Shown piece after piece: positions 4,841 through 18,951 of a DNA stretch of 32,000 nt. Below the pieces are notes generated by a model, which saw only the letters and a list, made by a program, of their open reading frames with translations, ran no database searches and had not been told where the DNA came from. The stretch lies in NCBI RefSeq assembly GCF_042660085.1, contig NZ_JBHSTI010000008.1, forward strand, positions 300,001 through 332,000, given 5' to 3'. The stretch is from Longivirga aurantiaca (lineage in GTDB: Bacteria > Actinomycetota > Actinomycetes > S36-B12 > CAIYMF01). A program made the translations under genes and the position numbers. Within the stretch, counting starts at the first letter, position 1. Every line of letters begins with the position of its first letter.

Positions 4841-5887
4841 ATGACCGTCATCGCATCCACGCCGGGAGGCTGGATGGCTGCCGAGATGGCCGAGCAGCCG
4901 GAGCGCGTGCGCGCCGCCCTCGCGGGTGTGCGCGAGCAGGGCGGTGTTCTGGCACCCCTGGTGGCGTCTGCGCGTGAGGTGCTCGTGCTGGGCCGGGGGT
5001 CCAGCCGCTCCGCCGGCACCTACGCGGCCGAGGCGCTGCGGACGTTCGCGGGGGTCCCGGCATCGACGACGTCGCCGGCGCACCTCGCATGGTCGCAGCA
5101 GCGGCGCCTCGACGGAACGCTCGTCGTCGCGATCTCGCAGTCGGGCGAGAGCACGGAGATCATCGCTGCCGCACGCCGGGCCCTCGAGCTCGGCGCGAAC
5201 CTCGTCGCCGTCACCAACTCGCCGGCATCGGAGCTGGCGGGGCTGGCTGGCCCGCGGCAGACCATCCACTTCCGAGCCGGGAACGAGATCGCGGTCCCGG
5301 CGACCAAGAGCTTCACGTCGTCGCTGGCGTGCCTTCTGGGCCTCGCGATGGCCCATACCCCGACGGGTCTCGTGGACGCGGAGGCGGAGCTGCCGCAGCT
5401 CATGGCCGAGCTGCTGGCCGATCCCGACGCCACGTTCACCCTCGACGGCACGACCGACATCGCTTGCGCGGGTGAAGGATTCGCCGAGGCGGTAGGGGAG
5501 GAAGGTGCGATCAAGCTGCGTGAGACCCTTCGGATTCCCGTCGCCTCGTTCGAGACCAGCGAGTTCCTCCACGGCAGCATCAACTCTGTCCGGCCCCGCT
5601 CGACCCTGGTGACGGTCGACGCCGACCCCTCTGGCCGGAGCCTCGCGGAGCAGGCGGCCGTAGGAGCGGCGAGCAGAGGCGCCGCGACCGTGAGCATCGG
5701 AGCGTCGGCCACGAGCTCCGCCGGGCGCCACATCCGCATCCCGCAGGTCCCGTCCCACTGGGTTCCCTTCCTGGCGGTCCTGCCGATTCAGCGTGCCGCG
5801 CGCGAGGCCGCGATCGCTCGCGGCGAGGACCCCGACCGGCCGCCGGGTCTCTCCAAGATCACGAGGATCGCCACGGGTCCGGCGTGA
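4841..5887 (+). CDS. Double-SIS-domain sugar-phosphate isomerase/deaminase (GlmS C-terminal half / NagB-II / AgaS / FrlB deglycase family)
   Basis: 348-aa ORF. The first SIS repeat shows VLVLGRGSSRSAGTYAA and VAISQSGESTEII. The second shows EEGAIKLRE and ETSEFLHGSIN. There is no glutaminase domain. Confidence 0.85.
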   Translation: MTVIASTPGGWMAAEMAEQPERVRAALAGVREQGGVLAPLVASAREVLVLGRGSSRSAGTYAAEALRTFAGVPASTTSPAHLAWSQQRRLDGTLVVAISQSGESTEIIAAARRALELGANLVAVTNSPASELAGLAGPRQTIHFRAGNEIAVPATKSFTSSLACLLGLAMAHTPTGLVDAEAELPQLMAELLADPDATFTLDGTTDIACAGEGFAEAVGEEGAIKLRETLRIPVASFETSEFLHGSINSVRPRSTLVTVDADPSGRSLAEQAAVGAASRGAATVSIGASATSSAGRHIRIPQVPSHWVPFLAVLPIQRAAREAAIARGEDPDRPPGLSKITRIATGPA

Positions 5888-5969: not shown

Positions 5970-7514
5970 ATGACCGAAGCGACACCACTCATCGACATGC
6001 GTGACATCGCCCTGAGCTTCGGCGTGGTCAAGGCGCTCCGAGGGGTCGACTTCGAGCTGCGGCCCGGCGAGGTGCACGCGCTGCTGGGCCAGAACGGCGC
6101 CGGCAAGTCGACCTTGATCAAGGTTCTGTCCGGCGTCTACCAGCGCGACAGCGGTGATGTCCGGATCCACGGCGAGCCGACCCAGTTCAAGTCGGCCCAG
6201 GAATCACGTGAGAGCGGCATCGCCATGGTCTACCAGGACCTCTCGCTGGTCCCGACCATGACGGTCGCTGCCAACCTGTTCCTCGGACGCGAACCGCATG
6301 GTCCGCTGAAGCTGGTGCGCAACGGCGACCTCGTGGCGAAGGCGCAGAAGTACCTCGACGAGCAGGGCTTCCCGGTGAAGGCGAACGCGACCGTCGACAG
6401 CCTGCCCTTCGCCTACCGGCAGCTCACGGAGATCGCCAAAGCGCTCATGGGCGACATCAGGATCCTGGTCCTGGACGAGCCCACCTCGGCCCTGTCCGCT
6501 GGCGAGGAGGAGATCCTCTTCGACGCGGTCAAGGAGGTCACCAAGCGGGGGGTCGGCGTCGTGTACGTCACGCACCGCCTCCACGAGGTCTTCCGCATCA
6601 GCGACCGCGTCACCGTTCTGCGTGACGGACTCAACGCAGGGACCTTCCAGACCGCAGACATCACCATGGAGGCGCTCGTCCAGTCGATCGTGGGGCCGGG
6701 CCACGAGAAGCTGACGCAGTCGACCCTGAGCCTCGAGGAGGGCGAGCGACGCGCGTCCCACGCAGCCGGGTCCAGCAAGAGCGCCACGCCGGTCATCGAG
6801 CTGCGGGATGTTCACAACGAACGGCTCCATGGTGTGAGCCTCGCCGTTCGTCCGGGGGAGATCCTCGGGCTCGCCGGCATGGTCGGCTCCGGACGGACCG
6901 AGATCCTCGAGACCATGTTCGGGCTGCGCCGGGCGGCCGAGGGCGAGGTGCGCTACCAGGGCGAACCGGTGGCGTGGCGAAGCCCCGCGCGCGCCATCGC
7001 CGCCGGCGTCGCGCTCATCCCCGAGGACCGCCATCTGCAGGGGCTCGTCCTCGGCGACACCATCGCCGCCAACGTGGCCCTGCCCCAGCTCCCCGGGCTC
7101 ACGAGGTCCGGCATGTTCGCCAGGCGCGAGGCGGCCCGACGTGCCAGAGCAGCGGTGTCCGACCTCAATGTGAGGACACCGGGCATCTCCACCAAGCTGC
7201 AGAACCTCTCCGGCGGCAACCAGCAGAAGGTCGTGTTCGGCAAGTGGCTCACTCCCGAGCCGAAGCTCCTGCTGCTCGACGAACCGACCGTCGGGGTCGA
7301 CGTCGGCGCGCGCGACGAGATCTACGGCATCATCCGCCGCTTCGCGCGGGCGGGCTGCGCCGTGGTGGTGATCTCCTCCGACCTGGTCGAGCTCGAGATG
7401 CTCTGCGACAACCTGGCTGTCGTCCACGACGGCCGCATCGTCACCACGGTCCATACGTCCGACATCGAAGGTGAAGAAGGCCTCCACCAACTCGTTCAGG
7501 AGTCAGCGCGATGA
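5970..7514 (+). CDS. Sugar ABC transporter ATP-binding protein, fused double NBD (CUT2, RbsA/MglA/XylG type)
   Basis: ATG 5970 has GGAAGGAAG upstream. The 59 extra codons in the ORF track (5793-5969) are R/P-rich and overlap the SIS gene. NBD1 has Walker A GQNGAGKST and Walker B ILVLDEPTSAL. NBD2 has signature LSGGNQQK and Walker B LLLLDEPTVGVD. The NBD1 signature is degenerate (LPFAYRQ in place of LS-G-QQ). Confidence 0.9.
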   Translation: MTEATPLIDMRDIALSFGVVKALRGVDFELRPGEVHALLGQNGAGKSTLIKVLSGVYQRDSGDVRIHGEPTQFKSAQESRESGIAMVYQDLSLVPTMTVAANLFLGREPHGPLKLVRNGDLVAKAQKYLDEQGFPVKANATVDSLPFAYRQLTEIAKALMGDIRILVLDEPTSALSAGEEEILFDAVKEVTKRGVGVVYVTHRLHEVFRISDRVTVLRDGLNAGTFQTADITMEALVQSIVGPGHEKLTQSTLSLEEGERRASHAAGSSKSATPVIELRDVHNERLHGVSLAVRPGEILGLAGMVGSGRTEILETMFGLRRAAEGEVRYQGEPVAWRSPARAIAAGVALIPEDRHLQGLVLGDTIAANVALPQLPGLTRSGMFARREAARRARAAVSDLNVRTPGISTKLQNLSGGNQQKVVFGKWLTPEPKLLLLDEPTVGVDVGARDEIYGIIRRFARAGCAVVVISSDLVELEMLCDNLAVVHDGRIVTTVHTSDIEGEEGLHQLVQESAR

Positions 7515-8500
7515 GCACATCCACTACCCCGGCGCCCGAGAGCCTGCGCGAGCCCAGGACCAACCCGTTCAAGGCCATGCTCAACAGCGACCGCCCCTAC
7601 CCGCAGGCGCTGGCTCTGGTCGTACTGATCATCTTCTTCTCGGTGATGTCACCGGTGTTCTTCTCGGCCGCCAACTTCGCCAACATCGGCCGGCAGACGA
7701 CGCTTGTCACGGTCATGGCGGTCGGCATGACCTTCGTGATCATCTCCGCGGAGATCGACCTGTCCGTCGCGTCGATCCTGAAGCTGTCGGGTGTCTCTGC
7801 GGCCCTGTTCATGCAGGAGTTCGGCGAGAACTGGATTGCAGGCGCCCTCGTGGGCATTGGGGTGGGCGCGCTGATCGGCTTCACCAACGGGCTGCTGACG
7901 ACGAAGCTGCGCATCCCGAGCTTCCTCGTGACACTGGGAATGTTGGGCGTGGCAAAGGGTCTCGCGTTCGTCATGACCGACACGGCTCCGGTCCTGGTCG
8001 ACAACACCACGTTCTGGAACGTCTTCTGGGAGGGCAGCGTCCTCGGCCTTCCGGTCCCGATCATCTGGACGGTGGTGATCCTGGTCATCGGCGGGGTCCT
8101 GCTGCACCTCACCACGTTCGGCCGGAAGGTGTACGCGACAGGTGGCAACGCGGTTGCCGCGCGCTACTCGGGCATCAGCACCGATCGCGTCAAGATCTAC
8201 TGCTTCATGCTGTCCGGCGTCCTCGCCGGCCTCGCCTCCCTCCTCTTCGCAGCACAGGCGCATGCCGCGCGCCCCGACTTCGCGGACGGACTCGAGCTCG
8301 ATGTGATCGCCGCCGTGATCCTGGGCGGCACCAGCCTCTTCGGCGGTCGCGGCACCATCATCGGAACCTTCATCGGCTCGCTGATCATCGGTGTGCTCAA
8401 CAACGGCCTCGTGATCATCGGCGTCAGCTCGTCGTGGCAGATCGCCGTCAAGGGACTGATCATCATCCTGGCGGTCGCTTTCGCGGCGCGTAAGAAGTGA
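7511..8500 (+). CDS. Sugar ABC transporter permease (RbsC/XylH type)
   Basis: 329-aa ORF that is hydrophobic throughout, with about 9-10 predicted TM segments. It contains the CUT2 permease block AVILGGTSLFGGRGTIIGTFIGS. Its ATG overlaps the ATPase stop (ATGA at 7511-7514). Confidence 0.9.
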   Translation: MSTSTTPAPESLREPRTNPFKAMLNSDRPYPQALALVVLIIFFSVMSPVFFSAANFANIGRQTTLVTVMAVGMTFVIISAEIDLSVASILKLSGVSAALFMQEFGENWIAGALVGIGVGALIGFTNGLLTTKLRIPSFLVTLGMLGVAKGLAFVMTDTAPVLVDNTTFWNVFWEGSVLGLPVPIIWTVVILVIGGVLLHLTTFGRKVYATGGNAVAARYSGISTDRVKIYCFMLSGVLAGLASLLFAAQAHAARPDFADGLELDVIAAVILGGTSLFGGRGTIIGTFIGSLIIGVLNNGLVIIGVSSSWQIAVKGLIIILAVAFAARKK

Positions 8501-9306
8501 GCACCGCCACGGCGCCGCTCGCACACGGCCGTCTCCAGGGCAAGGTGGCGATCGTCACCGGTGGGTCGCGGCAGATCGGTCTCGCCATCGCGAGACGGTT
8601 CGCCGCCGAGGGGGCCAAGGTCGTGATCGCGGCGCGCGGCGAGGATGACGGACGCGAGGCCGAACTGTCCATCCGCGGTGCGGGAGGCGAGGCGACGGCG
8701 CTGGTCTGCGACGTCGCCGACGAGTCGAGCGTCGCTGCCACTGTCGACAGGGTGCTCGAGCTGTACGGGCACGTGGACATCATGGTGAACAACGCCGGAA
8801 CCGGTGTCGCCGAGGCGATCACGGACCTCTCGTGGGACGACTACCGGCGGGTGATCGACATCAACGTGGGTGGCGTCCTCCTCGGCACGAAGTACGCCGC
8901 GCGCGCTATGCAGCGCGGCGGTCGCGGGGGAAGCATCATCAACATCTCGTCGATCCAGGGGGTCTTGCCGTTGAGGCAGTCGGCGGTGTACGCCGGCAGC
9001 AAGGGTGCGGTGAACCTGATCACCCAGCAGACCGCAGCGGACCTCGGCGCGTTCGGCATCCGCGTGAACGCCATCGCGCCCGGCTACATCGACAGCCCGA
9101 TGATGCACGGCTACCACGACCTCGTCAGCGAGTCTCCCGGCGAGGCCATCGGCGCGGCGCGGCGCTCCATCGTCCTGGGGCGTCTGGCGACGACCGATGA
9201 CGTCGCCGGTCCGGCACTCTTCTTCGCCTCCGACGACTCCGTGTACGTCACGGGGACGCTCCTGCTCGTCGACGGAGGCTCGCAGTGCCACGGGGCGATT
9301 GCGTGA
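8497..9306 (+). CDS. Short-chain dehydrogenase/reductase (SDR)
   Basis: 269-aa ORF with TGGSRQIG (TGxxxxxG), NNAG, and the catalytic S...YAGSK (YxxxK). The GTG start overlaps the permease stop (GTGA at 8497-8500). Confidence 0.9.
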   Translation: MSTATAPLAHGRLQGKVAIVTGGSRQIGLAIARRFAAEGAKVVIAARGEDDGREAELSIRGAGGEATALVCDVADESSVAATVDRVLELYGHVDIMVNNAGTGVAEAITDLSWDDYRRVIDINVGGVLLGTKYAARAMQRGGRGGSIINISSIQGVLPLRQSAVYAGSKGAVNLITQQTAADLGAFGIRVNAIAPGYIDSPMMHGYHDLVSESPGEAIGAARRSIVLGRLATTDDVAGPALFFASDDSVYVTGTLLLVDGGSQCHGAIA

Positions 9307-11375
9307 GCGTGACCCAGTCCTCCCTGAACTCCGGTACGAGCGAGTTTCCACACCTGTTCACCCCGCTGCGCATTCGCGGACACGAGCTGCGCAACCGGAT
9401 CGTCTTCCAGCCGCACTTCAACTGCCTGGCGGATGTCCACGGGATGCCGACTCCAGACCTCACCGCCTATCTCGAAGAGCGAGCATGGGGCGGCTCGGGT
9501 CTCATCGTGGACGGCTCGATGGCGACGATGTACGAGGGCCAGATGTCCCGGAAGTACCTCGCGGCCTGGGACGAGCGGTCGGTGGAGGGGAACCGGCGCA
9601 CCACCGACGCGGTGCACGCGCACGGAGCCACGATCTTCGCCCAGCTCAATCATGGCGGCCACACGTCGCTGGAGCACCCCCCGCCGGTGCTGTGGGCGCC
9701 GACGCAGATGCCTGAGCCGTCCAGCGTGCACACGACGAAGGCCATGGATGCGACCGACATGCGCAGGGCGGTCGAAGGGTTCGCCACGTCCGCACGCAAT
9801 CTCGCGGCTGCCGGCTACGACGGTGTCGAGCTGAAGATCGCCCATGACGGGCTGCTCCGCAGCTTCGCCTCCCCGTTCTTCAACCGTCGCACGGACGCAT
9901 ACGGAGGTTCGTTCGAGAACCGGATGCGCTTCCCCCTCGAGTGCGTGGCCGCCGTTCGCGAGAACATGCCCGACGACATGGCGCTGGGCATCCGGATCTG
10001 TCTGCACGAGTACACGCCCTTCGGATACGAGCTCGACTACGGCCTCCGGATGGCCGAGCACCTCGAGGCGAGCGGACTGGTCGACTACTTCAACTGCGAC
10101 GCAGGGTCCTTCTCGAGCTTCTGGATGGAGATCCCGCCGGCCGCCGTGGCGCAGGGGTTCTTCCGGCCGCTGAACCAGGCCCTCAAGGCCCAGTCGGATC
10201 TTCCAGTCGTCGCCTTCGGGAGGATCAAGGACGCCGACCTCGCCGAGCACATGCTGGCTTCCGGCGAAGCGGACATGATCGGCATGGCGCGGCAGCTCAT
10301 CGCCGATCCGGAGACGCCGCGCAAGCTGCTGGAGGGCCGGGCAGGCGAGGTGCGGGCGTGCATCGGCTGCAACGACGGCTGCCTGCACGCGGTGGCGCAG
10401 GAGAAGCCGATCCGCTGCGTGCAGAACCCTGCTGCCGGCCAGGAGCTCCTCTACAGCGAGCGGTTGCTGGTGCACGCATCCCAGCCGCGTACCGTCGTCG
10501 TCGTCGGCGGCGGCCCCGCGGGGCTGAAGGTAGCCGAGATCGCAGCCCGGCGCGGGCACCGTGTGTCGCTGTTCGAGCGCGACACTCAGCTGGGCGGCCA
10601 GGTCCGCCTGGGCTCGCGCCAACCGCACCATCAGGAGTTCGCCGAGGTCGTGCACTACCTCGAAGCAGCCGTCCGGAGGCTCGGCGTCGAGGTGTGGACC
10701 GGCGTCGACGTCGACGCCCAGGGCGTCCTGGACCTCGGGCCGGACGTCGTCGTCGTCGCAACGGGCTCTCAGCCCAACCTGCCCGACTCCGACCGTCGGT
10801 CGCACGCCGACCCGGACGCAGGGGTGGTCGCGCGCGAGCGCGGTCTCACCGTCGGCCCCGAGATTCGAGGTCTCGAGCTGTCGTGCGTCTACTCGGCGGA
10901 TGAGGTCCTTGCCGGCGAGGCCCTTCCCGGGACGCACGTGCTCGTCGTGGACGGCCAGGGGCACTGGGAGGCTGCCGGCACCGTCGAGTTCCTGGCAGCG
11001 GCCGGGCACCAGGTCACCGTCATCACCACGCGGGCGTCGGTCGGCAGCGAGCTCGAGGGGACGAACCACGCGATGTTCATGCAGCGCGTGGGGAAGTCGC
11101 AGATCGTGATGCGGCCGTTCACGGGCCTGCGCGCGGTCGAGCCAGGTCGGGCGCTGCTGATCGACGCCGTGACAGGCGAGGAGTCGTGGCTCGCGGTCGA
11201 CGCCGTCGTCCCGGTGTCCTGGCGGCGCTCGCGCGATGACCTGTTCTACACGCTCCACGACCTGGTGCTGGAGTCCGGTGCAGCGGTCCAGGTCGAGCGG
11301 GTGGGTGACGCCGCCGCCGCACGCATGGTCCAGACGGTCCTTCTCGAGGCGCACCAGATGGGCACGGTCCTGTAG
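9303..11375 (+). CDS. FMN/4Fe-4S/FAD(NAD) flavoprotein of the 2,4-dienoyl-CoA reductase / trimethylamine-histamine dehydrogenase / N-methylproline demethylase family
   Basis: The N-terminal half is an OYE-like TIM barrel (LFTPLRIRGHELRNRIVFQPH, FAQLNHGGH, GYDGVELKIAHDGLLRSFASPFFNRRTDAYGGSFENRMRF). The cluster motif CIGCNDGCLHAVAQEKPIRC (CX2CX3CX11C) lies at 10359-10418. It is followed by the Rossmann motif VVVVGGGPAGLKVAEIAARRGHRVSLFE. I prefer the GTG 9303 start (GTGA overlap with the SDR stop) over ATG 9285. Confidence 0.85.
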   Translation: MSVTQSSLNSGTSEFPHLFTPLRIRGHELRNRIVFQPHFNCLADVHGMPTPDLTAYLEERAWGGSGLIVDGSMATMYEGQMSRKYLAAWDERSVEGNRRTTDAVHAHGATIFAQLNHGGHTSLEHPPPVLWAPTQMPEPSSVHTTKAMDATDMRRAVEGFATSARNLAAAGYDGVELKIAHDGLLRSFASPFFNRRTDAYGGSFENRMRFPLECVAAVRENMPDDMALGIRICLHEYTPFGYELDYGLRMAEHLEASGLVDYFNCDAGSFSSFWMEIPPAAVAQGFFRPLNQALKAQSDLPVVAFGRIKDADLAEHMLASGEADMIGMARQLIADPETPRKLLEGRAGEVRACIGCNDGCLHAVAQEKPIRCVQNPAAGQELLYSERLLVHASQPRTVVVVGGGPAGLKVAEIAARRGHRVSLFERDTQLGGQVRLGSRQPHHQEFAEVVHYLEAAVRRLGVEVWTGVDVDAQGVLDLGPDVVVVATGSQPNLPDSDRRSHADPDAGVVARERGLTVGPEIRGLELSCVYSADEVLAGEALPGTHVLVVDGQGHWEAAGTVEFLAAAGHQVTVITTRASVGSELEGTNHAMFMQRVGKSQIVMRPFTGLRAVEPGRALLIDAVTGEESWLAVDAVVPVSWRRSRDDLFYTLHDLVLESGAAVQVERVGDAAAARMVQTVLLEAHQMGTVL

Positions 11376-12128
11376 ATGGGGCTGACGATCGCGGTGTGCG
11401 TCAAGCCTGTGCCCGTGAGCACCACCCTCGATCCCCGAACTGGACGCCTCGACCGGACCGGCGCGCATCGCATGAACTCGGTCGACGAGAACGCGGTCGA
11501 GGCCGCCTTGAGCCTCCGCGACGCCGTGGCCGGCAGCGAAGTCGTCGTGGTCGCCGTGGCACCCGATCGGCTCGCCGAGTCACTGCGGCCCGCTCTGGCG
11601 ATGGGCGCGGATAGAGGTCTCTGCGTGTCAGGACCTGAGCTCGAGGGCGCCGACCTGCTGGGCGTCAGTTCGGCTCTCGCGAACGCACTCTCGGGGATGA
11701 GCCCCGATCTGGTGATCTTCGGATCGTGGAGCAGCGACGGGTACGGCGCCATGCTGTGGGCGGCGGTCGGCGAGCGACTCGGGTTACCGGTCGCGTCACG
11801 TGCCGTCCGGTTCGTCCTCGACAACGATCGCTTGACCGTCACACGTCAGATCGAGCAGGGGAGCCAGGTCCTGGAGGTCGAGCTGCCTGCGATCCTGGCT
11901 CTCTCCGGAGAGGTCAACACGCCCCGCTACCCGTCGTTCAAGGACGTCATCGCCGGGAAGAAGAAGCCGATCGACCAGGTCACGGCCACCCCATCGGTGA
12001 TCGCGGCGGGGACGACCGTGCTGTCCGTCGAGCCGGCGCCGCCGCGTGCCCGAGGTGTCGTCATCGAGGACGATGGGCAGGCGCACGAGCGTCTGGTCGA
12101 CTTCCTGGTTCAGCGAGGTCTCGTATGA
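11376..12128 (+). CDS. etfB: Electron transfer flavoprotein, beta subunit
   Basis: 250-aa ORF with the typical ETF-beta/FixA N-terminus (IAVCVKPVPV...LDRTGAHRMNSVDENAVEAAL) and the C-terminal NTPRYPSFKDVIAGKKKPI. The ATG directly abuts the flavoprotein stop (TAGATG). Confidence 0.85.
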   Translation: MGLTIAVCVKPVPVSTTLDPRTGRLDRTGAHRMNSVDENAVEAALSLRDAVAGSEVVVVAVAPDRLAESLRPALAMGADRGLCVSGPELEGADLLGVSSALANALSGMSPDLVIFGSWSSDGYGAMLWAAVGERLGLPVASRAVRFVLDNDRLTVTRQIEQGSQVLEVELPAILALSGEVNTPRYPSFKDVIAGKKKPIDQVTATPSVIAAGTTVLSVEPAPPRARGVVIEDDGQAHERLVDFLVQRGLV

Positions 12129-13093
12129 CCTCGCGCGCGCTTGTCCTCGCGGAGCTACGGCGGGGCGCGGTGACGGCGGGGAGCCTCGGTGCGATCGCTG
12201 CAGCCGCCCGCTGTGCGGACGAGGTGGACGTGCTGGTGGTGTCCGGGACGGACGAGGTCGTGGACGACGCGCTCTGCGGGGCCCTCGGTGGCCAGGGCGC
12301 GACGTCGGTGCACAGCGCACTCCTCGATCCGGCTCTGGCCTCGGTGTGCACGGACGTCCTGGACCAGCTCGTGTCTGAGCTGCGACCCGGCATCGTCATC
12401 CTCGAGAGCTCGTCGCTGGCGTCGGACGCCGCGGCGGCGCTGGCTGCTCGTCGCTCCGCCGGCGTGAACTGGGACCTCGTCGGCCTCGAGCGGGACGAGA
12501 CAGGCTCATGGATCGGAACCCGGTTCGCGCTCCAGGACAGCCTGGTGGTGCGGGTCGGTTGGACGACCGAGCTGGCGATCGCCGTCCTGAGGCCAGGGGT
12601 CTTCGAGGCGCGGGATGCGACGGAGGACATGCCTCGCCGGGGAGCTCTGCTTCGGGATGTGCGAAGCAGCACGGCCGGCCGGGTCATCTCCACCGACGGC
12701 GGCGAGTTCGAGTCGTCCGGCCTGGACTCGGCCGACATCGTGGTCTCTGGCGGCCGCGGCGTGGCGACGCGCGAGCAGTTCGCTCTGCTGGAGGAGCTGG
12801 CGGCCCTCCTGGGTGGAGCGCTCGGGGTCAGCATGCCCGTGGTGGACAAGGGCTGGTACCCGCACTCGTACCAGGTCGGTCAGACCGGGCGGACCGTGCG
12901 GCCCCGCGTGTACATCGCCTGCGGGATCTCCGGTGCGATCCAGCACCGGGTCGGCATGGCCAGGTCGGGCACGATCGTGGTCATCAACAGCGACCCCCAG
13001 GCACCTCTGTTCGGTGTCTGCGATTTCGGCATCGTCGGCGATCTCACGCAGGTGGTTCCTCGTCTGACTGCCGCTCTTCGGGACCGAGGCTAG
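12125..13093 (+). CDS. etfA: Electron transfer flavoprotein, alpha subunit
   Basis: ATG 12125 overlaps the etfB stop (ATGA). The C-terminal FAD-binding block is VVSGGRGV...LGGALGVSMPVVDKGWYPHSYQVGQTGRTVRPRVYIACGISGAIQH..G. The upstream part of the ORF-track frame (11726-12124) is an antisense-style artefact. Confidence 0.85.
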   Translation: MTSRALVLAELRRGAVTAGSLGAIAAAARCADEVDVLVVSGTDEVVDDALCGALGGQGATSVHSALLDPALASVCTDVLDQLVSELRPGIVILESSSLASDAAAALAARRSAGVNWDLVGLERDETGSWIGTRFALQDSLVVRVGWTTELAIAVLRPGVFEARDATEDMPRRGALLRDVRSSTAGRVISTDGGEFESSGLDSADIVVSGGRGVATREQFALLEELAALLGGALGVSMPVVDKGWYPHSYQVGQTGRTVRPRVYIACGISGAIQHRVGMARSGTIVVINSDPQAPLFGVCDFGIVGDLTQVVPRLTAALRDRG

Positions 13094-13172: not shown

Positions 13173-14261
13173 CTAGGGGACGTCGACCCACCGACCATGC
13201 TCGGCCGAGTCCAGGACGGCCTGCGTGATCCGCGCCGCGCGAAGGCCGTCGCCGAAGGCGGGCAGCCCATCGACAGCCTCCCCGCGCACGGCGGCGTACA
13301 CGTCGCCGACGAAAGCGTTGAAGCAGTCCTGGTAGCCCTGCGGGTGCCCCGGCGGCAGCGGAGCCAGCAAGGGGGAGGCCGACGGCATCGGGGTGACGCC
13401 GCGAGGCACGACCGTCGCCTGGGAGCGCGCGCCCACCCAGAGGGTCTCCGGCTGCTCCTGATCGAAGGCGATCGACTGGTCAGCGCCGTCCATCGAGAAC
13501 CACAGCCGGTTCTTGCGGCCGGGAGAGACCTGACTGACGACCAGCGAGCCGATGGCGCCCTGGTCCGTCTCGAAGACCACCGTGGCCAGATCCTCTGTCG
13601 TCACCCGGGTCGTCGCGTCCCGGGACTGGATGGCGGTCTTGGTCTGCGCCACCAGCCGGGAGATTCGGTGACCGCTGACGAACTCGACGACATCGCACCA
13701 GTGCACGCCGATGTCGCCGAATGCCCGCGAGGAACCGCCCACAGCGGCATCGACGCGCCAGTTGATGTCGGCGGAGCTCGAGAGCCAGTCCTGCAGGTAC
13801 GACCCGTGCAGCACCCAGAGCGGACCGACGTCCCCGCGCTGCACGCGCATCCGCGCTTCGCGCACGGTCTGGTAGTAGCGGTAGACGAACGGGACGCCGT
13901 TCACCACTCCGTGCCTCGCCGCGAGGTCGACGACCTCCTCGGCGTCGGCCACCGTCGTCGCGAGAGGCTTCTCGCAGATGACGGCCTTGCCCGCCGCCGT
14001 CGCCTTGCGCGCAAGGGCCGCGTGCAGGTTGTTGGGAGTGCAGATGTGGACGACGTCGACATCGTCAGACTCGATGAGAGCCTCGGCCGATGCGGCGGCG
14101 GCGCGGGCTCCCATCCGTGCCGCCGCCGCCATCGCCGCCTCAGGGGTAGCGTCAGCGACGGCTGCAACGATGCCGCCCGAGGCGCGGACCGCCTGAGCGT
14201 GCACATTGCCGATGAAGCCGGCGCCGATGATCCCTGAGCGAACTGCGTCACCCATCGACAT
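13173..14261 (-). CDS. Gfo/Idh/MocA-family NAD(P)-dependent oxidoreductase (1)
   Basis: 362-aa ORF with the N-terminal Rossmann motif SGIIGAGFIGNVH and the family EKPL motif (VICEKPLATT). It overlaps the upstream stop by 14 nt. Confidence 0.85.
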   Translation of the reverse strand: MSMGDAVRSGIIGAGFIGNVHAQAVRASGGIVAAVADATPEAAMAAAARMGARAAAASAEALIESDDVDVVHICTPNNLHAALARKATAAGKAVICEKPLATTVADAEEVVDLAARHGVVNGVPFVYRYYQTVREARMRVQRGDVGPLWVLHGSYLQDWLSSSADINWRVDAAVGGSSRAFGDIGVHWCDVVEFVSGHRISRLVAQTKTAIQSRDATTRVTTEDLATVVFETDQGAIGSLVVSQVSPGRKNRLWFSMDGADQSIAFDQEQPETLWVGARSQATVVPRGVTPMPSASPLLAPLPPGHPQGYQDCFNAFVGDVYAAVRGEAVDGLPAFGDGLRAARITQAVLDSAEHGRWVDVP

Positions 14262-15408
14262 CGACCCACTGCTGGGTTCGCGACGACTCCAGGATCGCGT
14301 CCGCGACGAGCGAGATCCGGTAGCCGTCCTCGAAGTTGGGCCGCACGGGAGTGCCGTTCACGATGGCGCTCACGAAATCGTACGCCTCGATGATCTTCGT
14401 CTCGCCGTACCCGATACCCAGCGCCGGGATCGGCCAGAGGCCCTCGCCGTACGGGTGAGCAGGTCCGGTGTAGACGGTTCGGAACCCGCGCCTGTCGCTG
14501 GGATCGTCGGCGAAGCACACCTGGAGCTCGTCGCGGCGCTCGTAGTTGAAGAAGAGCGAGCCCAGGGTGCCGTGGATCTCGAACGTGATGAAGTTGTTGC
14601 GGCCGTAGCCGTTGCGGGTGGCCTCGAGCGAGCCGACGGCGCCGTTGGCGAATCGCAGCATCGTGACCATCTCGTCGTCGACATCGACCGGACCGAGCTC
14701 GCCACCGGTGCGCGACGTGCCGAGGGCGTCGCGGCCGCCGGACTGCTTCGGGCGCTCCGGGACGATGGTTCGAGCGATCCCGATCACCGACGTGATGTCG
14801 CCGGCGAGGTATCGCGCGAGGTCGATGATGTGCGTACCGATGTCGCCCACCGCCCCCGAGCCGGCGATCGCGCTCTGGAAGCGCCACGACAGCGGCGACG
14901 CGGGGTCCGCGCTCCAGTCCTGGAGGTACGTGCCGCGGAAGTTGAGGATCTCGCCGATGGCCCCCTCGTCGATGTACTTCTTGGCCAGCGCCACAGCCGG
15001 TGTCCGGCGGTAGTTGAAGGCAACCATGTTGACCACGCCCGCGGCAGAGACGGCGTCCAGCATCGTCTTCGCCTCAGCCGCGTTCCGTGCCAGCGGCTTC
15101 TCGCAGATGATGTGCTTGCCAGCCTCGGCAGCAGCGATGGCCATCTCGGGGTGCAGGTGGTTGGGCGTCGCGATGTCGACGATGTCGATGGAGGGGTCCT
15201 CGATCACGCGGCGCCAGTCGCCCGTGCTCGATTCGAAGCCGAACCGTGCGGCGCCCTCTGCGGCGAGCTCCTCAGTGGCCTCAGCGATCACCGCCCGCAC
15301 CGGGATGGCCGGTGCCGGCCAGAAGAACATGGGCATGGCCGCGTAGGCCAGTGAGTGGGCCTTGCCCATGAAGCCGGCCCCGATGAGGCCTACGCGCAGT
15401 TCTCGCAT
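14248..15408 (-). CDS. Gfo/Idh/MocA-family NAD(P)-dependent oxidoreductase (2)
   Basis: I start at ATG 15408 (MRELRVGLIGAGFMGKAHS), which has GGAGA 7 nt upstream. The ORF track's 12 extra N-terminal codons lack an RBS. The family motif IICEKPLARN is present. Confidence 0.85.
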   Translation of the reverse strand: MRELRVGLIGAGFMGKAHSLAYAAMPMFFWPAPAIPVRAVIAEATEELAAEGAARFGFESSTGDWRRVIEDPSIDIVDIATPNHLHPEMAIAAAEAGKHIICEKPLARNAAEAKTMLDAVSAAGVVNMVAFNYRRTPAVALAKKYIDEGAIGEILNFRGTYLQDWSADPASPLSWRFQSAIAGSGAVGDIGTHIIDLARYLAGDITSVIGIARTIVPERPKQSGGRDALGTSRTGGELGPVDVDDEMVTMLRFANGAVGSLEATRNGYGRNNFITFEIHGTLGSLFFNYERRDELQVCFADDPSDRRGFRTVYTGPAHPYGEGLWPIPALGIGYGETKIIEAYDFVSAIVNGTPVRPNFEDGYRISLVADAILESSRTQQWVDVDG

Positions 15409-15494
15409 GCTGTATCTCCGTCCATGAGGGGTAGCTCCGCCCACGGGCCCGCGCGTAGGCGGCCCCGGTGGCGGTGGTCTGGGGTCTTCTTCGG

Positions 15495-16334
15495 TCAGCC
15501 GAGGGTGATGCCGAGTTCGGTGATGATCTGGTCGAGGTGAGCCTTGGATGCCTTGGCCGCCTCGAGGTTGGATCCGGCATACTCATCCAGCTCGACCATG
15601 AGCCAGCTGTCGTAGCCCGTCTCGGTCACGGCTCGCACGATGTCGGTGAAGTCGAGGGTCCCTGCACCGAGCGGGGTCCAGGTGAAGGGATCGGGCTTCC
15701 AGTCCTTCAGGTGGACGTGCTTGATGCGATCGGAGTGCGAGCGGATCATCGCGGCGGGGTCTCCGCCGGCTGCTGCGAGGTGCCCGGTGTCCGGGCACAG
15801 GCCGATCTCGCTCAGGTCCATGATCCGTGCGAGCTCGACCGGGTTCTCGACGATGGTCGTCAGGTGGGGGTGGTACGTCGCGACGAGTCCCCGGTCGGCA
15901 GCCATGCGGTCGACGAGGTCCAGGCCGTTGCCCAGCGCGATGTAGTCCTCGTCGGTGGTGCCGGCGGCACGACGGGCACCTCCACCGACCACGAGCCGCT
16001 CGGCTCCGAACCTGACGGCGAGCTCGATGGCGCGCGAGATCTTGTCCATCTCGTCGGGAAGGATGTCGGCGTAGATGAAGTTCGCGCCGGTGTAGACACT
16101 GACCAGCTCCAGGCCGTTCGCCTCGAGCAGGCCGAGCAGGTCGTCCGGTCGGTCTGCGTACTTGGCCACGTCGCCGTCGAACATCTCGGTGCCGGTGTAG
16201 CCGGCCTCGGCGATGTCACGGGCGGCGTCGGCGATATCGCCCACCCCGCAGTAGAAGAGGTCCTTGATGCTCGTCACGCCGACCGGATGGCCGAGGACGC
16301 CGCCCCAGGTGATCGAGTGGTAGCCGAGCTTCAC
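15495..16334 (-). CDS. Xylose-isomerase-like TIM-barrel enzyme (IolE inosose-dehydratase-like / sugar lyase-hydratase type)
   Basis: 279-aa ORF. By-eye similarity to B. subtilis IolE: YHPHLTTIVENPVE vs YHHHMGTGIQTKEE; CPDTGHLAAAGGDPAAMIRSHSDRIKHVHLKD vs [37 protein letters not shown] vs GDGDLDF; LMVELDEY vs IVVEAEQD. Confidence 0.8.
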   Translation of the reverse strand: MKLGYHSITWGGVLGHPVGVTSIKDLFYCGVGDIADAARDIAEAGYTGTEMFDGDVAKYADRPDDLLGLLEANGLELVSVYTGANFIYADILPDEMDKISRAIELAVRFGAERLVVGGGARRAAGTTDEDYIALGNGLDLVDRMAADRGLVATYHPHLTTIVENPVELARIMDLSEIGLCPDTGHLAAAGGDPAAMIRSHSDRIKHVHLKDWKPDPFTWTPLGAGTLDFTDIVRAVTETGYDSWLMVELDEYAGSNLEAAKASKAHLDQIITELGITLG

Positions 16335-16378
16335 GAGGTCTCCTTGTGCTGCAGTGGATGTGTGGGGGCCGTCGGATG

Positions 16379-17299
16379 TCAGCCGACGATGAGTGGTGCG
16401 AGCGTGCGATGAGCGATCTCGAGGCCTGTCTTGACCTTGTCCTCGGTGCCGCCCCAGATCGGGTCCTCATGCTCGACCGACAGCACGCCCTCGAACCCGC
16501 CTTCGTAAAGGGCATCGACGACCGCGGTCCAGTCGACCTGGCCGAGGCCGGGGACGCGATACCGCCACCAGCCGACGTCCCAGGGATCCGGTCGGTCGAT
16601 GGCCTTGCCGGGCCATCCGTACCGGTTGCGCAGTTCCGGGAAGACCTGGATGTCCTTGGCCTGCGCATGCGGGATCCGGTCGATGTAGGGGGTGAGCGCA
16701 GCCACCGGATCGATACCCATCCACACCAGATGCGACGGGTCGTAGTTCAGGTACAGGCCGATCGAGAACATCCACTCCCACAGCTCAGGGGAGTAGGCGA
16801 GGTTGCCGGGGTAGCCGTCGGGGTGCCAGCCCTCCATGACGCAGTTCTCGATCACGAGCTTGACGCCCTTCTCGCCTGCTGAGTCGACGAGGGGCTTGAA
16901 GACCTCCTCCGCCTCCGCGAGGTTCGCCGCGACCGACCGGGAGGGGTCGCGGCCCACGAAGGTCCCGACCGTGGGACAGCCGAGGAGGGCGGCGGCGTCG
17001 ATGCATGCGAGCACGTGCTCGTTGATCGCGGAGCGCTCGGCGGGGTCCGGGTGCAGGTTGTTGTCGTAGAACGCCAGCGAGGACAACGTGAGTCCGGAGG
17101 TGTCGAAGCGCTCCCTGATGTCCTCGGCCGCGGAGCGATCGAGCGTCTCGACGGCGATGTGCGTCGCGGTGAAGGGGCGATTCCCGACGGCAGGCCAGGC
17201 GGCGACCTCGAGGGCCTGGTAGCCCGCAGCGGCCCCCCACTCGATGATGGCATCGAGGGGCTGGTCGGGCAGGCAGGCGGTGAGGAAGCCCAACTTCAT
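16379..17299 (-). CDS. Sugar phosphate isomerase/epimerase-family TIM-barrel protein
   Basis: 306-aa ORF with ATG 17299 and AAGGAGA 8 nt upstream. It shows the AP_endonuc_2-type pattern (MKLGFLTACLP...GYQALEV..., NYDPSHLVWMGID, HAQAKD, LSVEHED). Confidence 0.8.
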   Translation of the reverse strand: MKLGFLTACLPDQPLDAIIEWGAAAGYQALEVAAWPAVGNRPFTATHIAVETLDRSAAEDIRERFDTSGLTLSSLAFYDNNLHPDPAERSAINEHVLACIDAAALLGCPTVGTFVGRDPSRSVAANLAEAEEVFKPLVDSAGEKGVKLVIENCVMEGWHPDGYPGNLAYSPELWEWMFSIGLYLNYDPSHLVWMGIDPVAALTPYIDRIPHAQAKDIQVFPELRNRYGWPGKAIDRPDPWDVGWWRYRVPGLGQVDWTAVVDALYEGGFEGVLSVEHEDPIWGGTEDKVKTGLEIAHRTLAPLIVG

Positions 17300-18667: not shown

Positions 18668-18951
18668 GTCTCTTCACGGTCGCCCACTTCCACTGCCTCG
18701 CCGGACGCGGGCCGGAAGTCGAGGCCTTCCTCGCGCCGCTCGTCGAGCCGACCACGTCGGAGGACGGCTGCGTCTACTACCGCTACTTCCGCGACACGAG
18801 CGATCCGGACCACTTCGTGTTCTGGGAGCAGTGGCGGGACGACGACGCACTCGACACGCATATCGGAACGGCTCGGGTGCAGTCGATGCTCGTCTCGGTC
18901 CAGCCCTTGCTGGCCGCCCCGGTCGCCGCCTATCGGCTCAGCCTTCGGTGA
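18664..18951 (+). CDS. ABM-domain (antibiotic-biosynthesis-monooxygenase-like) small protein
   Basis: 95-aa ORF with ATGA coupling to the ROK stop. The pattern is typical of the ferredoxin-like ABM fold (FTVAHFH...EVEAFL...E.GC..Y..F.D..DP..FVFWE.W.D..AL..H). Confidence 0.75.
   Translation: MSLFTVAHFHCLAGRGPEVEAFLAPLVEPTTSEDGCVYYRYFRDTSDPDHFVFWEQWRDDDALDTHIGTARVQSMLVSVQPLLAAPVAAYRLSLR

Follow-up and report, generated by a model that had tools for sequence, protein, structure and literature searches.

Related enzymes and pathways

The described enzymes closest to the flavoprotein studied here are the mycofactocin-associated FadH/OYE oxidoreductases 1 and 2 (TIGR03996/TIGR03997), which combine a CX2CX3CX11C motif with a third domain without GxGxxG and which have a dedicated ETF pair adjacent (e.g. 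Streptomyces yangpuensis plasmid NZ_CP102515). Trimethylamine dehydrogenase (TMADH, 1djn), histamine dehydrogenase (6de6/3k30) and 6-hydroxypseudooxynicotine (6-HPON) amine oxidase (6l6j) share the three-domain FMN/4Fe-4S/ADP-type fold and have amine-catabolic neighbors, and TMADH uses ETF as its redox partner (1o94/1o95). E. coli FadH (1ps9) and 2-naphthoyl-CoA reductase (NCR, 6qkg) have the same Fe-S motif spacing as the flavoprotein and gave the best sequence and rmsd matches to its N-terminal two thirds. Two other three-domain OYE enzymes, 5beta-delta4-KSTD1 of Sphingobium and BaiCD, make or remove a C=C beside a 3-keto group, but they act on steroids and ETF genes are unreported for them; 5beta-delta4-KSTD1 desaturates a 3-ketone, for which artificial or quinone-type acceptors serve but NAD(P)+ does not (PMC8044976).

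Among pathways, the nearest is levoglucosan catabolism by LgdA, LgdB1, LgdB2 and LgdC (Bacillus smithii, Paenarthrobacter), for which a glycal intermediate, its hydration and its reduction are established (PMC7676230). Its oxidize, eliminate, hydrate and reduce logic (PMC7676230, PMC10066097) resembles the pathway proposed below, but as published that pathway is redox-neutral, with no need for a flavoprotein or ETF, and ETF and OYE genes go unmentioned in the neighborhood survey of PMC10066097 (zero occurrences).

Organization of the locus

The window, that is, the whole stretch of 32,000 nucleotides of Longivirga aurantiaca DNA that was analyzed, contains the flavoprotein gene in the following operon:

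4841-5887, plus strand, at the head of the operon, two-SIS-domain protein of the GlmS-isomerase/NagB-II glucosamine-6-P deaminase type
5970-7514, plus strand, CUT2 sugar ABC ATPase (two ABC domains)
7511-8500, plus strand, CUT2 (ribose-type) ABC permease
8497-9306, plus strand, classical SDR dehydrogenase, GTGA overlap at each end
9303-11375, plus strand, three-domain flavoprotein, 690 aa
11376-12128, plus strand, EtfB, ETF beta subunit (Pfam ETF, 7.7e-36)
12125-13093, plus strand, EtfA, ETF alpha subunit (Pfam ETF_alpha, 3e-35)

The junctions, read directly from the sequence, agree with the original prediction, in which 4-nt overlaps tied the flavoprotein gene to the SDR, permease and ATPase genes upstream (ATGA at 7511-7514, GTGA at 8497-8500 and GTGA at 9303-9306) and the ETF genes followed immediately, the ATG of etfB abutting the TAG stop of the flavoprotein gene (TAG/ATG, 11373-11378) and etfB overlapping etfA by ATGA at 12125-12128. 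The database gene call for the flavoprotein has the identical start and length (690 aa), and no terminator-like site above chance level was found within the operon. Orthologous loci in other genera, 75-88% identical, keep the order SIS-ATPase-permease-SDR-flavoprotein-EtfB-EtfA, so that the operon is not a chance juxtaposition, and the SDR gene lies directly upstream of the flavoprotein gene across the whole subclade of at least 75% identity. The window holds no binding-protein gene for the CUT2 ABC system, which counts against the function proposed below.

The operon is surrounded by the following genes:

643-1584, minus strand, D-2-hydroxyacid dehydrogenase, in a divergent operon shared with the aminotransferase and YhfS genes
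1581-2147, minus strand, cupin-type phosphoglucose isomerase, in the same divergent operon
2174-3307, minus strand, YhfS orthologue, a PLP enzyme (match to YhfS of E. coli, 4j8l, 236 bits)
3360-4748, minus strand, class-III (omega) aminotransferase, divergent from the SIS gene
13173-14261, minus strand, Gfo/Idh/MocA oxidoreductase, convergent on etfA
14248-15444, minus strand, levoglucosan dehydrogenase (LgdA) equivalog (723.5 bits, cut-off 650)
15495-16334, minus strand, AP_endonuc_2 TIM barrel, IolE/LgdB-like
16379-17299, minus strand, second AP_endonuc_2 TIM barrel
17408-18667, plus strand, ROK-family regulator, conserved with the block
18938-20305, minus strand, ROK-family regulator, conserved with the block

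The adjacent operon is similar to the Lgd systems in having an LgdA equivalog, a second Gfo gene and two PF01261 TIM barrels, and homologues of the Gfo subtype at 13173-14261 (cluster 9) adjoin the flavoprotein gene in distant loci as well. Just upstream there is a yhfV/W/X-type cluster.

Domains, active-site residues and phylogeny of the flavoprotein

The earlier reading of the protein as a three-domain OYE/Fe-S flavoprotein was correct: Pfam assigned Oxidored_FMN to residues 18-347 (1.5e-56) and Pyr_redox_2 to residues 397-650, the 4Fe-4S motif CIGCNDGCLHAVAQEKPIRC at residues 353-372 has the CX2CX3CX11C spacing (C353/C356/C360/C372), and the dinucleotide-fold motif GGGPAG is located at residue 402. 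The predicted model matched the fold of every solved three-domain member (TM 0.81-0.86; 0.81-0.83 for the TMADH group) and superposed best on NCR (2.9 A) and then FadH (3.6 A), with low confidence in the active-site loops (pLDDT <50 at 119-146, 187-194, 269-281 and 356-365). The third domain, VVDGQGHWEAAG, has lost the NADPH site, with no GxGxxG where FadH has IGAGGIG, and the same is true of TMADH, histamine dehydrogenase and HpbA; because this motif is missing, the flavoprotein is predicted not to use NAD(P)H.

Among solved structures, phmmer ranked FadH first (226.8 bits), and public annotations label relatives of the flavoprotein as '2,4-dienoyl-CoA reductase-like', which would suit an ordinary FadH-type 2,4-dienoyl-CoA reductase or housekeeping flavoprotein with sugar genes as chance neighbors. 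This explanation is nevertheless extremely improbable, as the match is limited to residues 15-501 (histamine dehydrogenase aligns over 14-678), the catalytic E164/Y166/H252 of FadH are replaced by H181/G183/M275, the flavoprotein lacks the GxGxxG for NADPH binding together with its insertion, FadH and NCR form a distinct clade (100/98), and the sugar-gene neighborhood is kept in five phyla, with no CoA-ligase, hydratase or acyl-CoA genes among the annotated recurrent neighbor clusters, in contrast to FadH and NCR. FadH identity was thus rejected.

In the tree, the flavoprotein clade forms its own long branch (100/100), whose sister is the mycofactocin-associated OYE1/2 (88/90), outside both the TMADH/histamine dehydrogenase/6-HPON oxidase clade and the HpbA clade. 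The mycofactocin families gave the best NCBIfam match, yet at 590.7 bits it falls short of the curated cut-off (793), the sequences are only about 36% identical, and the neighbors are sugar genes instead of mftA-F or fixCX-like genes; no mycofactocin maturase was found in this genome. The second-best NCBIfam match, BaiCD (385.9 bits), is far under its cut-off of 825. A description of the clade was not found in the searchable literature, and it is a previously undescribed enzyme clade of carbohydrate-breakdown operons in at least five bacterial phyla.

The assignment to the wider family of three-domain FMN/Fe-S flavoproteins therefore stood, while membership of the TMADH/histamine dehydrogenase clade was rejected by the tree, by the lack of a Cys after the PH motif and by the Fe-S spacing, which is CX2CX3C here and CX2CX2C in TMADH, histamine dehydrogenase, 6-HPON oxidase and the amine-dehydrogenase-type paralogue of this genome. 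The TMADH Cys30 that forms 6-S-cysteinyl-FMN is replaced by Phe39, and Cys41, three residues past the conserved His38 and two past the Cys30 site, is unconserved in orthologues. Lys178 occupies the position of TMADH Tyr169, and an Asp182-Gly183 motif is a further difference. On the other hand, the alignment with the TMADH group is full-length, with H181 (the conserved His of the 'AH' motif) aligned with TMADH H172 and W274/E276 with W264/E266. Since HpbA, a C-N oxidizer, likewise falls outside the TMADH clade, the phylogeny is not decisive on chemistry.

The ETF pair and the direction of electron flow

The genome has three ETF pairs with a mutual identity of only 35-40%, so that the pair in the window is an extra paralogue and not a sole housekeeping copy. 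Another of these pairs adjoins a GMC oxidoreductase gene only 10 kb upstream. The etfBA genes lie directly downstream of the flavoprotein gene in 12 of 14 loci from Actinomycetota, Chloroflexota and Thermoleophilia, and the flavoprotein-linked ETFs of Chloroflexota and Thermoleophilia are nearer to the window EtfA (43-47% identity, 209-237 bits) than the two other EtfA paralogues of the genome itself (37-40%, 134-137 bits), which bears out the suggestion of a dedicated ETF. In one locus (L026) an EtfD-like Fe-S/CCG gene comes after the ETF pair; the present genome encodes one protein with two CCG domains and no ETF-QO.

Which way the electrons flow, which bond is oxidized and what the substrate is are inferred. 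A reductive direction, with the flavoprotein as an ene-reductase of a sugar-derived enone (2-hydroxy-3-keto-glycal, ascopyrone-type or levoglucosenone-type compounds) that is supplied by reduced ETF and not by NADPH, is improbable. It would agree with the grouping of the N-terminal 440 residues with the C=C reductases FadH and NCR and not with the TMADH clade, with the Fe-S spacing and structural resemblance common to these reductases, and with the occurrence of such enones as intermediates of the neighboring Lgd-type pathway (PMC7676230), but the hosts are aerobic heterotrophs, the EtfD-like gene after the ETF pair of L026 fits the oxidative direction, none of the genes nearby encodes an enzyme to feed ETF from NADH, Gly183 stands in place of the OYE Tyr proton donor, and reduction of a glycal would give a dead-end anhydro-alditol.

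Conservation of the neighborhood

We collected 80 loci of the clade, and neighbors were counted in those whose flanks extended for at least 4 kb, namely 14 terrabacterial (Actinomycetota, Chloroflexota, Thermoleophilia) and 38 proteobacterial/verrucomicrobial loci. The results showed that the usual neighbors in all phyla are AP_endonuc_2 (xylose-isomerase-like) TIM barrels (13/14 and 27/38 loci, respectively), Gfo/Idh/MocA dehydrogenases (13/14 and 19/38) and sugar ABC transporter genes (9/14 and 28/38), which supports the earlier view of a unit tied to sugar genes and not to fatty-acid genes. A typical distant operon consists of a LacI gene and Gfo-flavoprotein-TIM-CUT2 ABC. Only within the subclade of at least 75% identity is the flavoprotein accompanied by the SIS deaminase-like gene, the class-III aminotransferase and the second PLP enzyme, and amino-group genes (SIS, class-III aminotransferase, YhfS, YhfX) were found in 0 of the 38 proteobacterial/verrucomicrobial loci, all with adequate flanks, where the usual neighbors are LacI, ribose-type/CUT1 sugar transporters, aldo-keto reductases, Zn-ADHs, GH5 and sulfatases. 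In a 61% identical locus (L030), genes for a YhfX-like PLP protein and an amino-acid permease (AA_permease) lie beside the flavoprotein-ETF unit.

These observations bear on the cleavage of a C-N bond in an imported sugar-amine, as originally proposed, by a TMADH-like amine dehydrogenase that passes electrons to ETF. The substrate would be an Amadori-type fructosamine, an amino- or imino-sugar or an aminocyclitol, and the resulting keto-sugar would be handled by Gfo/SDR reductases and TIM-barrel isomerases. We regard this as less likely than the reading below, yet as a serious alternative. In its favor, the characterized ETF-dependent three-domain members all oxidize C-N bonds, the missing NADPH motif and the aligned H181 and W274/E276 recall TMADH, the TIM barrel adjoining the Labrys flavoprotein scored best against fructoselysine 3-epimerase (100 bits, below cut-off), and the minimal Gfo, flavoprotein and TIM set is compatible with a conversion of amine to keto-sugar to sugar as well. 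Against it are Phe39, the Fe-S spacing, the position outside both amine-oxidizing clades and the 0 of 38 loci, a count that also favors the function proposed below; furthermore, the SIS and PLP enzymes of the window's subclade could already supply C-N chemistry. For this subclade a nitrogen-bearing sugar is plausible because of the SIS first gene, the facing aminotransferase and YhfS genes, with the yhfV/W/X-type cluster nearby, and the YhfX-like and amino-acid-permease genes of L030.

Proposed function

The co-travelling etfBA genes, the EtfD-like gene of L026 and the Gfo, TIM-barrel and ABC partners support the reading that the flavoprotein is very probably an ETF-linked dehydrogenase of a sugar-like substrate. 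As a substrate:ETF oxidoreductase, its FMN would accept two electrons from a carbohydrate-derived intermediate and hand them on via the 4Fe-4S cluster to the dedicated EtfBA pair and from there to the quinone pool, probably via the EtfD-like two-CCG-domain Fe-S protein. The setting would be a keto-sugar pathway of the 'oxidize, rearrange, reduce' type, with two kinds of partner: an NAD-dependent sugar dehydrogenase, which is the SDR in the window and a Gfo/Idh/MocA enzyme in other loci, and TIM barrels of the xylose-isomerase-like type acting as hydratases, eliminases or epimerases.

An ETF-linked alcohol dehydrogenase acting on a sugar hydroxyl, analogous to the FAD/cytochrome glycoside 3-dehydrogenases and making an uphill first oxidation irreversible, has a low probability. 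TIM barrels and Gfo reductases are partner genes of glycoside 3-oxidation pathways too, and the ETF pair beside the GMC oxidoreductase suggests ETF-linked sugar oxidation in this organism, but the neighboring genes already provide NAD-dependent sugar dehydrogenases (SDR, Gfo, LgdA), and we know of no OYE-family enzyme that oxidizes an alcohol.

For the dehydrogenase reaction itself, the most likely candidate, put forward tentatively and at somewhat less than an even chance, is the alpha,beta-desaturation of a keto- or anhydro-sugar, for which 5beta-delta4-KSTD1 gives a precedent (PMC8044976). The hydride would be abstracted from a C-H beside the ring heteroatom, beta to a 3-keto group produced by the NAD-dependent dehydrogenase, as in the conversion of a 3-keto-1,5-anhydro-hexitol to 2-hydroxy-3-keto-glycal, an intermediate known to be hydrated by LgdB-type TIM barrels and reduced to glucose by LgdC-type Gfo enzymes. 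Such a substrate is supported by the LgdA equivalog in the window, by the LgdA-type gene which shares an operon with the flavoprotein gene in L037, and by the AnmK-family anhydro-sugar kinase gene upstream of it in L027, while most loci of the clade have no LgdA-type gene. The minimal operon of Gfo, flavoprotein and TIM barrel would exactly suffice to turn an anhydro- or deoxy-sugar into an aldose by a net two-electron oxidation plus hydration. Counting against desaturation, every characterized ETF-dependent superfamily member known to us oxidizes C-N bonds, a nitrogen-bearing substrate is plausible in the window's subclade and L030, and 3-keto-1,5-anhydro-hexitols could in principle be ring-opened by beta-elimination without a desaturase. 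In general, because the flavoprotein has its own ETF pair and its clade occurs in carbohydrate-breakdown operons of at least five phyla, it probably carries out a previously unknown oxidation in sugar catabolism that is linked to the respiratory chain.

Results and discussion

Organization of the flavoprotein operon

The flavoprotein of 690 amino acids is encoded in a run of seven genes on the forward strand of the window, where the G+C content is about 70%, and no terminator-like sites above chance were found inside this run. The neighboring operon on the reverse strand is convergent on it.

Genes of the flavoprotein operon and of the convergent operon (window positions)
4841-5887, +, SIS protein, first gene of the run
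5970-7514, +, sugar-type ABC ATPase
7511-8500, +, ribose-type permease
8497-9306, +, short-chain dehydrogenase/reductase (SDR)
9303-11375, +, flavoprotein, 690 aa
11376-12128, +, EtfB
12125-13093, +, EtfA, last gene of the run
13173-17299, -, TIM barrel, TIM barrel, LgdA equivalog (levoglucosan dehydrogenase type), second Gfo enzyme

The gene junctions from the ATPase to EtfA (ATGA, GTGA, GTGA, TAG directly followed by ATG, ATGA) read exactly as the original prediction had described them. The flavoprotein carries an Oxidored_FMN barrel at residues 18-347, the cluster motif C353-x2-C-x3-C-x11-C372 and GGGPAG at residue 402, which confirms the predicted domain features. For the CUT2-type ATPase and permease pair (5970-8500), a binding-protein gene is absent from the window and from all orthologous loci of the subclade of at least 75% identity, and the nearest Peripla_BP_4 gene is located 28 kb upstream (C8:271950 of the source genome).

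Sequence and structural features of the flavoprotein

Against solved structures, the flavoprotein obtained similar scores (189-227 bits) for FadH, 2-naphthoyl-CoA reductase (NCR), histamine dehydrogenase, 6-hydroxypseudooxynicotine (6-HPON) amine oxidase and TMADH, with the phmmer alignment to FadH (1ps9) covering only residues 15-501 and those to the amine dehydrogenases running end to end. The AlphaFold model (pLDDT 80) gave TM scores of 0.81-0.86 to all six structures compared, and rmsd values of 2.9-3.6 A to NCR and FadH versus 4.4-4.6 A to the amine dehydrogenases; the family-specific active-site loops have pLDDT below 50, so that the active site is unreadable from the model.

The OYE FMN barrel, the CX2CX3CX11C 4Fe-4S motif and the FAD-type Rossmann domain are features shared with FadH. 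The catalytic residues of FadH, Glu164, Tyr166 and His252 in E. coli numbering, have His181, Gly183 and Met275 as their counterparts, and these three show little or no variation in the query clade formed by the flavoprotein and its orthologues. The third-domain motif is V(V/I)DxxGHWEAAG in the query clade versus VVVIGAGGIG plus an insertion in an annotated FadH, and the NADPH-binding GxGxxG is absent from the third domain throughout the clade. This absence is common to TMADH, histamine dehydrogenase, HpbA and the mycofactocin OYEs, whereas FadH has the motif.

The Cys that forms 6-S-cysteinyl-FMN in TMADH, which the original prediction had singled out for inspection, is absent: the position of TMADH Cys30, after Pro-His, is Phe or Tyr39 in the query clade and Phe39 in the window protein. 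Cys41 of the window protein lies two residues past this site and is Ala or Ser in all 14 aligned orthologues, and covalent flavinylation of the TMADH type through Cys41 was rejected on account of its wrong position and lack of conservation. The 6-HPON oxidase likewise has no Cys for this linkage. The cluster spacing CX2CX2CX12C is common to the amine-dehydrogenase clade, in contrast to CX2CX3CX11C in the query clade. TMADH binds the ammonium group of its substrate in an aromatic bowl with acidic residues, including Tyr60, Trp264, Trp355 and Asp267; in the alignment, Trp274 and Glu276 of the flavoprotein fall near Trp264 and Glu266, Tyr60 is replaced by Ser72 and Trp355 has no counterpart, with these loops being of low confidence in the model.

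Family placement

Maximum-likelihood trees were built from the N-terminal 440 residues with five PDB sequences, annotated HpbA, N-methylproline demethylase, FadH and mycofactocin OYE1 and OYE2, and paralogues from related genomes. The flavoprotein and its orthologues formed a clade with 100/100 support, sister to the mycofactocin OYEs (88/90) and outside HpbA, outside the clade of FadH (E. coli, Agrobacterium) and NCR (100/98), and outside the long-branched clade of TMADH, 6de6 (histamine dehydrogenase), 6l6j (6-HPON) and the other paralogue of the genome (100/100). Placement within bona fide FadH, which would have spoken against the original prediction, was thus not what we observed; the tree as well as the residues at the catalytic positions and the missing NADPH motif rule out membership in FadH. 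The best NCBIfam model was mycofactocin-system OYE 2 with 590.7 bits, followed by BaiCD with 386 bits; since the former score is below the TIGR03997 cut-off of 793 and the genome (96% complete) contains no match over cut-off to the maturase mftC, membership in the mycofactocin system was also rejected. The residue checks, motifs, tree position and absence of the maturase together indicate that the flavoprotein belongs to none of the families compared, and that its separate clade combines a FadH-like cluster motif with a TMADH-like third domain predicted not to bind NAD(P)H. The phylogeny leaves C-N and C=C chemistry unsorted, as HpbA-type N-demethylases also fall outside the TMADH clade.

Several observations were made on related proteins. 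No CX2CX2-3C...C motif was found by a regular-expression search in the annotated HpbA and N-methylproline demethylases (retrieved loci L117:322-2358 and L118:244-2313), and these ETF-type N-demethylases are apparently without a 4Fe-4S cluster. The other long OYE/Fe-S paralogue of the genome (C8:1281845-1283833; L004/L009) falls inside the TMADH/histamine dehydrogenase/6-HPON clade and carries the PHC motif and CX2CX2C, indicating that the organism has a bona fide enzyme of the amine-dehydrogenase type elsewhere. On a Streptomyces yangpuensis plasmid (L112, NZ_CP102515:255188-262579), downstream of mycofactocin OYE1 and OYE2 come mft-EtfA, a FixC-like FAD oxidoreductase, a FixX-like ferredoxin and mft-EtfB, an arrangement that resembles a FixABCX module within the mft cluster.

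The ETF pair

The two adjacent genes that follow the flavoprotein encode proteins with ETF and ETF_alpha FAD-binding domains, for which NCBIfam gave only weak sub-threshold matches to FixAB, AcrAB and the mft ETFs. Three ETF pairs are present in the genome (3.67 Mb, 96% complete), namely that of the window and those at C8:288-290 kb and C8:792-794 kb, with mutual identities of 35-40%, so that the window pair is an extra paralogue and not the sole housekeeping copy, in agreement with the dedicated ETF originally proposed. ETFs located behind flavoprotein orthologues in Chloroflexota and Thermoleophilia share 43-47% identity with the window EtfA (209-237 bits) and are nearer to it than the genome's own paralogues (134-137 bits), indicating that the flavoprotein and this ETF lineage move together. 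For the onward route of electrons, no ETF-QO was found in the source genome, and a survey for EtfD candidates detected one protein with two CCG domains.

The second EtfB/EtfA pair, about 10 kb upstream of the window, is directly followed by a GMC oxidoreductase (GMC_oxred_N/C; C8:288141-291499, equal to L007:8141-11499). It may be a further unit for the ETF-linked oxidation of sugars or glycosides, like the C-glycoside 3-oxidases but not oxygen-dependent.

Distribution and gene neighbors

Among 60 related genomes, only 3 carried close orthologues (86-88% identity), and because the whole 20-kb block is syntenic there and hence uninformative, the survey was extended to more distant homologues. 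The protein database contained a graded series down to 54% identity, and screening 185,579 species genomes yielded 80 loci with 49-88% identity to the flavoprotein, which span Actinomycetota, Chloroflexota, Thermoleophilia, Alphaproteobacteria (many of them Rhizobiales and Rhodobacterales), Verrucomicrobiota and Paraburkholderia. Neighbors were surveyed with defined protein queries and by de novo clustering; the counts rest mainly on tblastn with the defined queries, as the ORF caller for the 80 loci was crude and returned some antisense frames, and they refer to genes within 10 kb of the flavoprotein at loci with at least 4 kb of flank, in genomes that are related and not independent.

Loci with each neighbor (Terrabacteria; Proteobacteria and Verrucomicrobiota)
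AP_endonuc_2 TIM barrel: 13/14; 27/38
Gfo/Idh/MocA: 13/14; 19/38
ETF: 12/14, adjacent to the flavoprotein; 1/38
Sugar ABC genes: 9/14; 28/38
LacI, Proteobacteria and Verrucomicrobiota: 17/38

In distant loci the usual operon layout is LacI / Gfo - flavoprotein - TIM barrel (ketose-3-epimerase-like) - ATPase - permease - binding protein, in which the binding protein and TIM barrel gave only generic matches to ribose-binding-protein and ketose-3-epimerase structures. Other repeated neighbors were CUT1 sugar transporters, aldo-keto reductases, Zn-ADHs and GH5, along with an HbpS/GlcG-like gene immediately 5' of the flavoprotein in Chloroflexota, and single loci showed an AnmK-family anhydro-sugar kinase (L027) or an EtfD-like Fe-S/CCG gene after the ETF (L026). 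No CoA-related genes were found among the annotated recurrent neighbor clusters of the 80 loci. SIS, class-III aminotransferase, YhfS, cupin PGI and 2-hydroxyacid dehydrogenase genes were confined to the subclade of at least 75% identity (8 loci), and SIS, class-III aminotransferase, YhfS and YhfX were found near the flavoprotein in none of the 38 proteobacterial and verrucomicrobial loci.

Homologues of E. coli yhfV (PTE), yhfW, yhfX and yhfS surround the locus (L007:11955-19948; window 2174-3307) together with a GntR/UTRA regulator and PtsI, and YhfX-like genes lie beside the flavoprotein in L030 and L096. The orphan yhf genes are recurrently linked to the flavoprotein clade in Actinomycetota. 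In Opitutales (L080, L082), the flavoprotein and TIM barrel are located amid several sulfatases with SGSH_C domains, which suggests use in sulfated glycan breakdown. A conserved LVIVD-repeat protein and a PF12831 FAD oxidoreductase are found between the binding-protein gene and the flavoprotein in L028 (16386-19140) and 10 more alphaproteobacterial loci. L032 (CALQEM020000016.1), labeled 'MAG: Bifidobacterium breve', also contains the entire high-G+C block and shares 87% identity with the window there; it is almost certainly a mis-binned actinobacterial contig.

In the convergent operon, the gene at 14248-15444 is an LgdA equivalog (723.5 bits against the NF052479 cut-off of 650), and at locus L037 an LgdA-type gene is in one operon with the flavoprotein. 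The operon at 13173-17299 probably encodes a pathway for levoglucosan or an anhydro-sugar; it has no transporter of its own, the sole one nearby being that of the flavoprotein operon.

Proposed function

The functional reading starts from an FMN/4Fe-4S enzyme without a recognizable NAD(P)H site, its private co-evolving ETF and its location inside carbohydrate operons, all established by comparison of genes. Electrons would flow from the substrate to FMN, the 4Fe-4S cluster, ETF, an EtfD-like protein and finally menaquinone. Such an ETF route serves oxidations of too high potential for NAD+, and two candidates are chemically sensible for the step, desaturation of a C-C bond beside a carbonyl or oxidation of a C-N bond.

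The second of these, oxidation of a C-N bond in an imported sugar-amine, was the original prediction, which is partly supported: the exclusion of FadH, the dedicated co-travelling ETF and the carbohydrate operon have all held. To our knowledge, every characterized ETF-dependent member of the three-domain superfamily oxidizes C-N bonds. The first gene of the window operon is of the NagB-II/GlmS-type SIS class (121 bits to 8eol). Divergent from the operon are genes for a class-III aminotransferase and for a genuine YhfS orthologue (4j8l, 236 bits), and immediately upstream of the window there is a yhfV/W/X-type cluster. An independent locus of 61% identity has the flavoprotein-ETF unit beside YhfX-like and amino-acid-permease genes. 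However, these nitrogen-related genes are lineage-restricted, those of the SIS and PLP types could carry out deamination themselves, and the flavoprotein lacks the hallmarks of the amine-dehydrogenase clade. C-N oxidation is a serious rival, though one we consider rather unlikely.

Desaturation is the reading we favor, if tentatively, based on universal partners that are enzymes of keto-sugar chemistry, on nitrogen-handling genes being missing from most loci, on the grouping of the N-terminal two thirds with C=C-active enzymes, and on the precedent of a three-domain OYE enzyme (KSTD) which desaturates a 3-ketone without NAD(P)+ (PMC8044976). In a possible four-step scheme, the SDR or Gfo enzyme would oxidize C3 of a 1,5-anhydro-hexitol or similar 1-deoxy sugar, and the flavoprotein would then take the C2 proton and C1 hydride to give 1,5-anhydro-D-erythro-hex-1-en-3-ulose, an established intermediate of the levoglucosan pathway (PMC7676230). 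The TIM barrel would hydrate this enone to 3-keto-glucose, which the Gfo enzyme would reduce to glucose, and the minimal operon observed, with one Gfo enzyme, the flavoprotein and one TIM barrel, would suffice for all four steps.

Stated in its most specific form, desaturation would make the clade an ETF-linked 'glycal-forming' desaturase that removes the C1 hydride, which would adjoin the ring oxygen or, in iminosugars, the ring nitrogen, from a 3-keto-1,5-anhydro-hexitol supplied by the neighboring NAD-dependent dehydrogenase to yield a 2-hydroxy-3-keto-glycal. We regard this exact assignment as improbable. If true, 1-deoxy and anhydro sugars without a C1 leaving group would enter the known hydrate-and-reduce route to glucose through a new carbohydrate-catabolism step coupled to the respiratory chain in at least five phyla.

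Implications

Known three-domain OYE/Fe-S flavoproteins are either NAD(P)H-dependent C=C reductases or ETF-dependent amine dehydrogenases, and we know of none that had been placed in carbohydrate catabolism before. Our literature search found no paper in which levoglucosan, anhydro-sugar or Gfo/TIM-barrel clusters are connected with an OYE/Fe-S flavoprotein or an ETF, and PMC7676230 and PMC10066097, which deal with the levoglucosan pathway, mention neither. We rate the flavoprotein as a putative ETF-dependent dehydrogenase of the three-domain OYE family that has been recruited into carbohydrate catabolism. The clade is coherent and well supported, its constant companions are enzymes of 3-keto-sugar chemistry and sugar importers, and Gram-positive lineages add their own co-evolving ETF; these companions and the ETF together predict a sugar-pathway step in which electrons are barred from NAD+ and fed to the quinone pool. 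Because the clade occurs in culturable organisms and in simple operons, the question can be put to a direct test. Identification of the substrate would add a reaction to the growing set of 'oxidative, non-hydrolytic' ways in which sugars and glycosides are broken down, might account for missing steps noted in anhydro-sugar degraders, and would give the sister mycofactocin-associated OYE/ETF enzymes their first functional handle.
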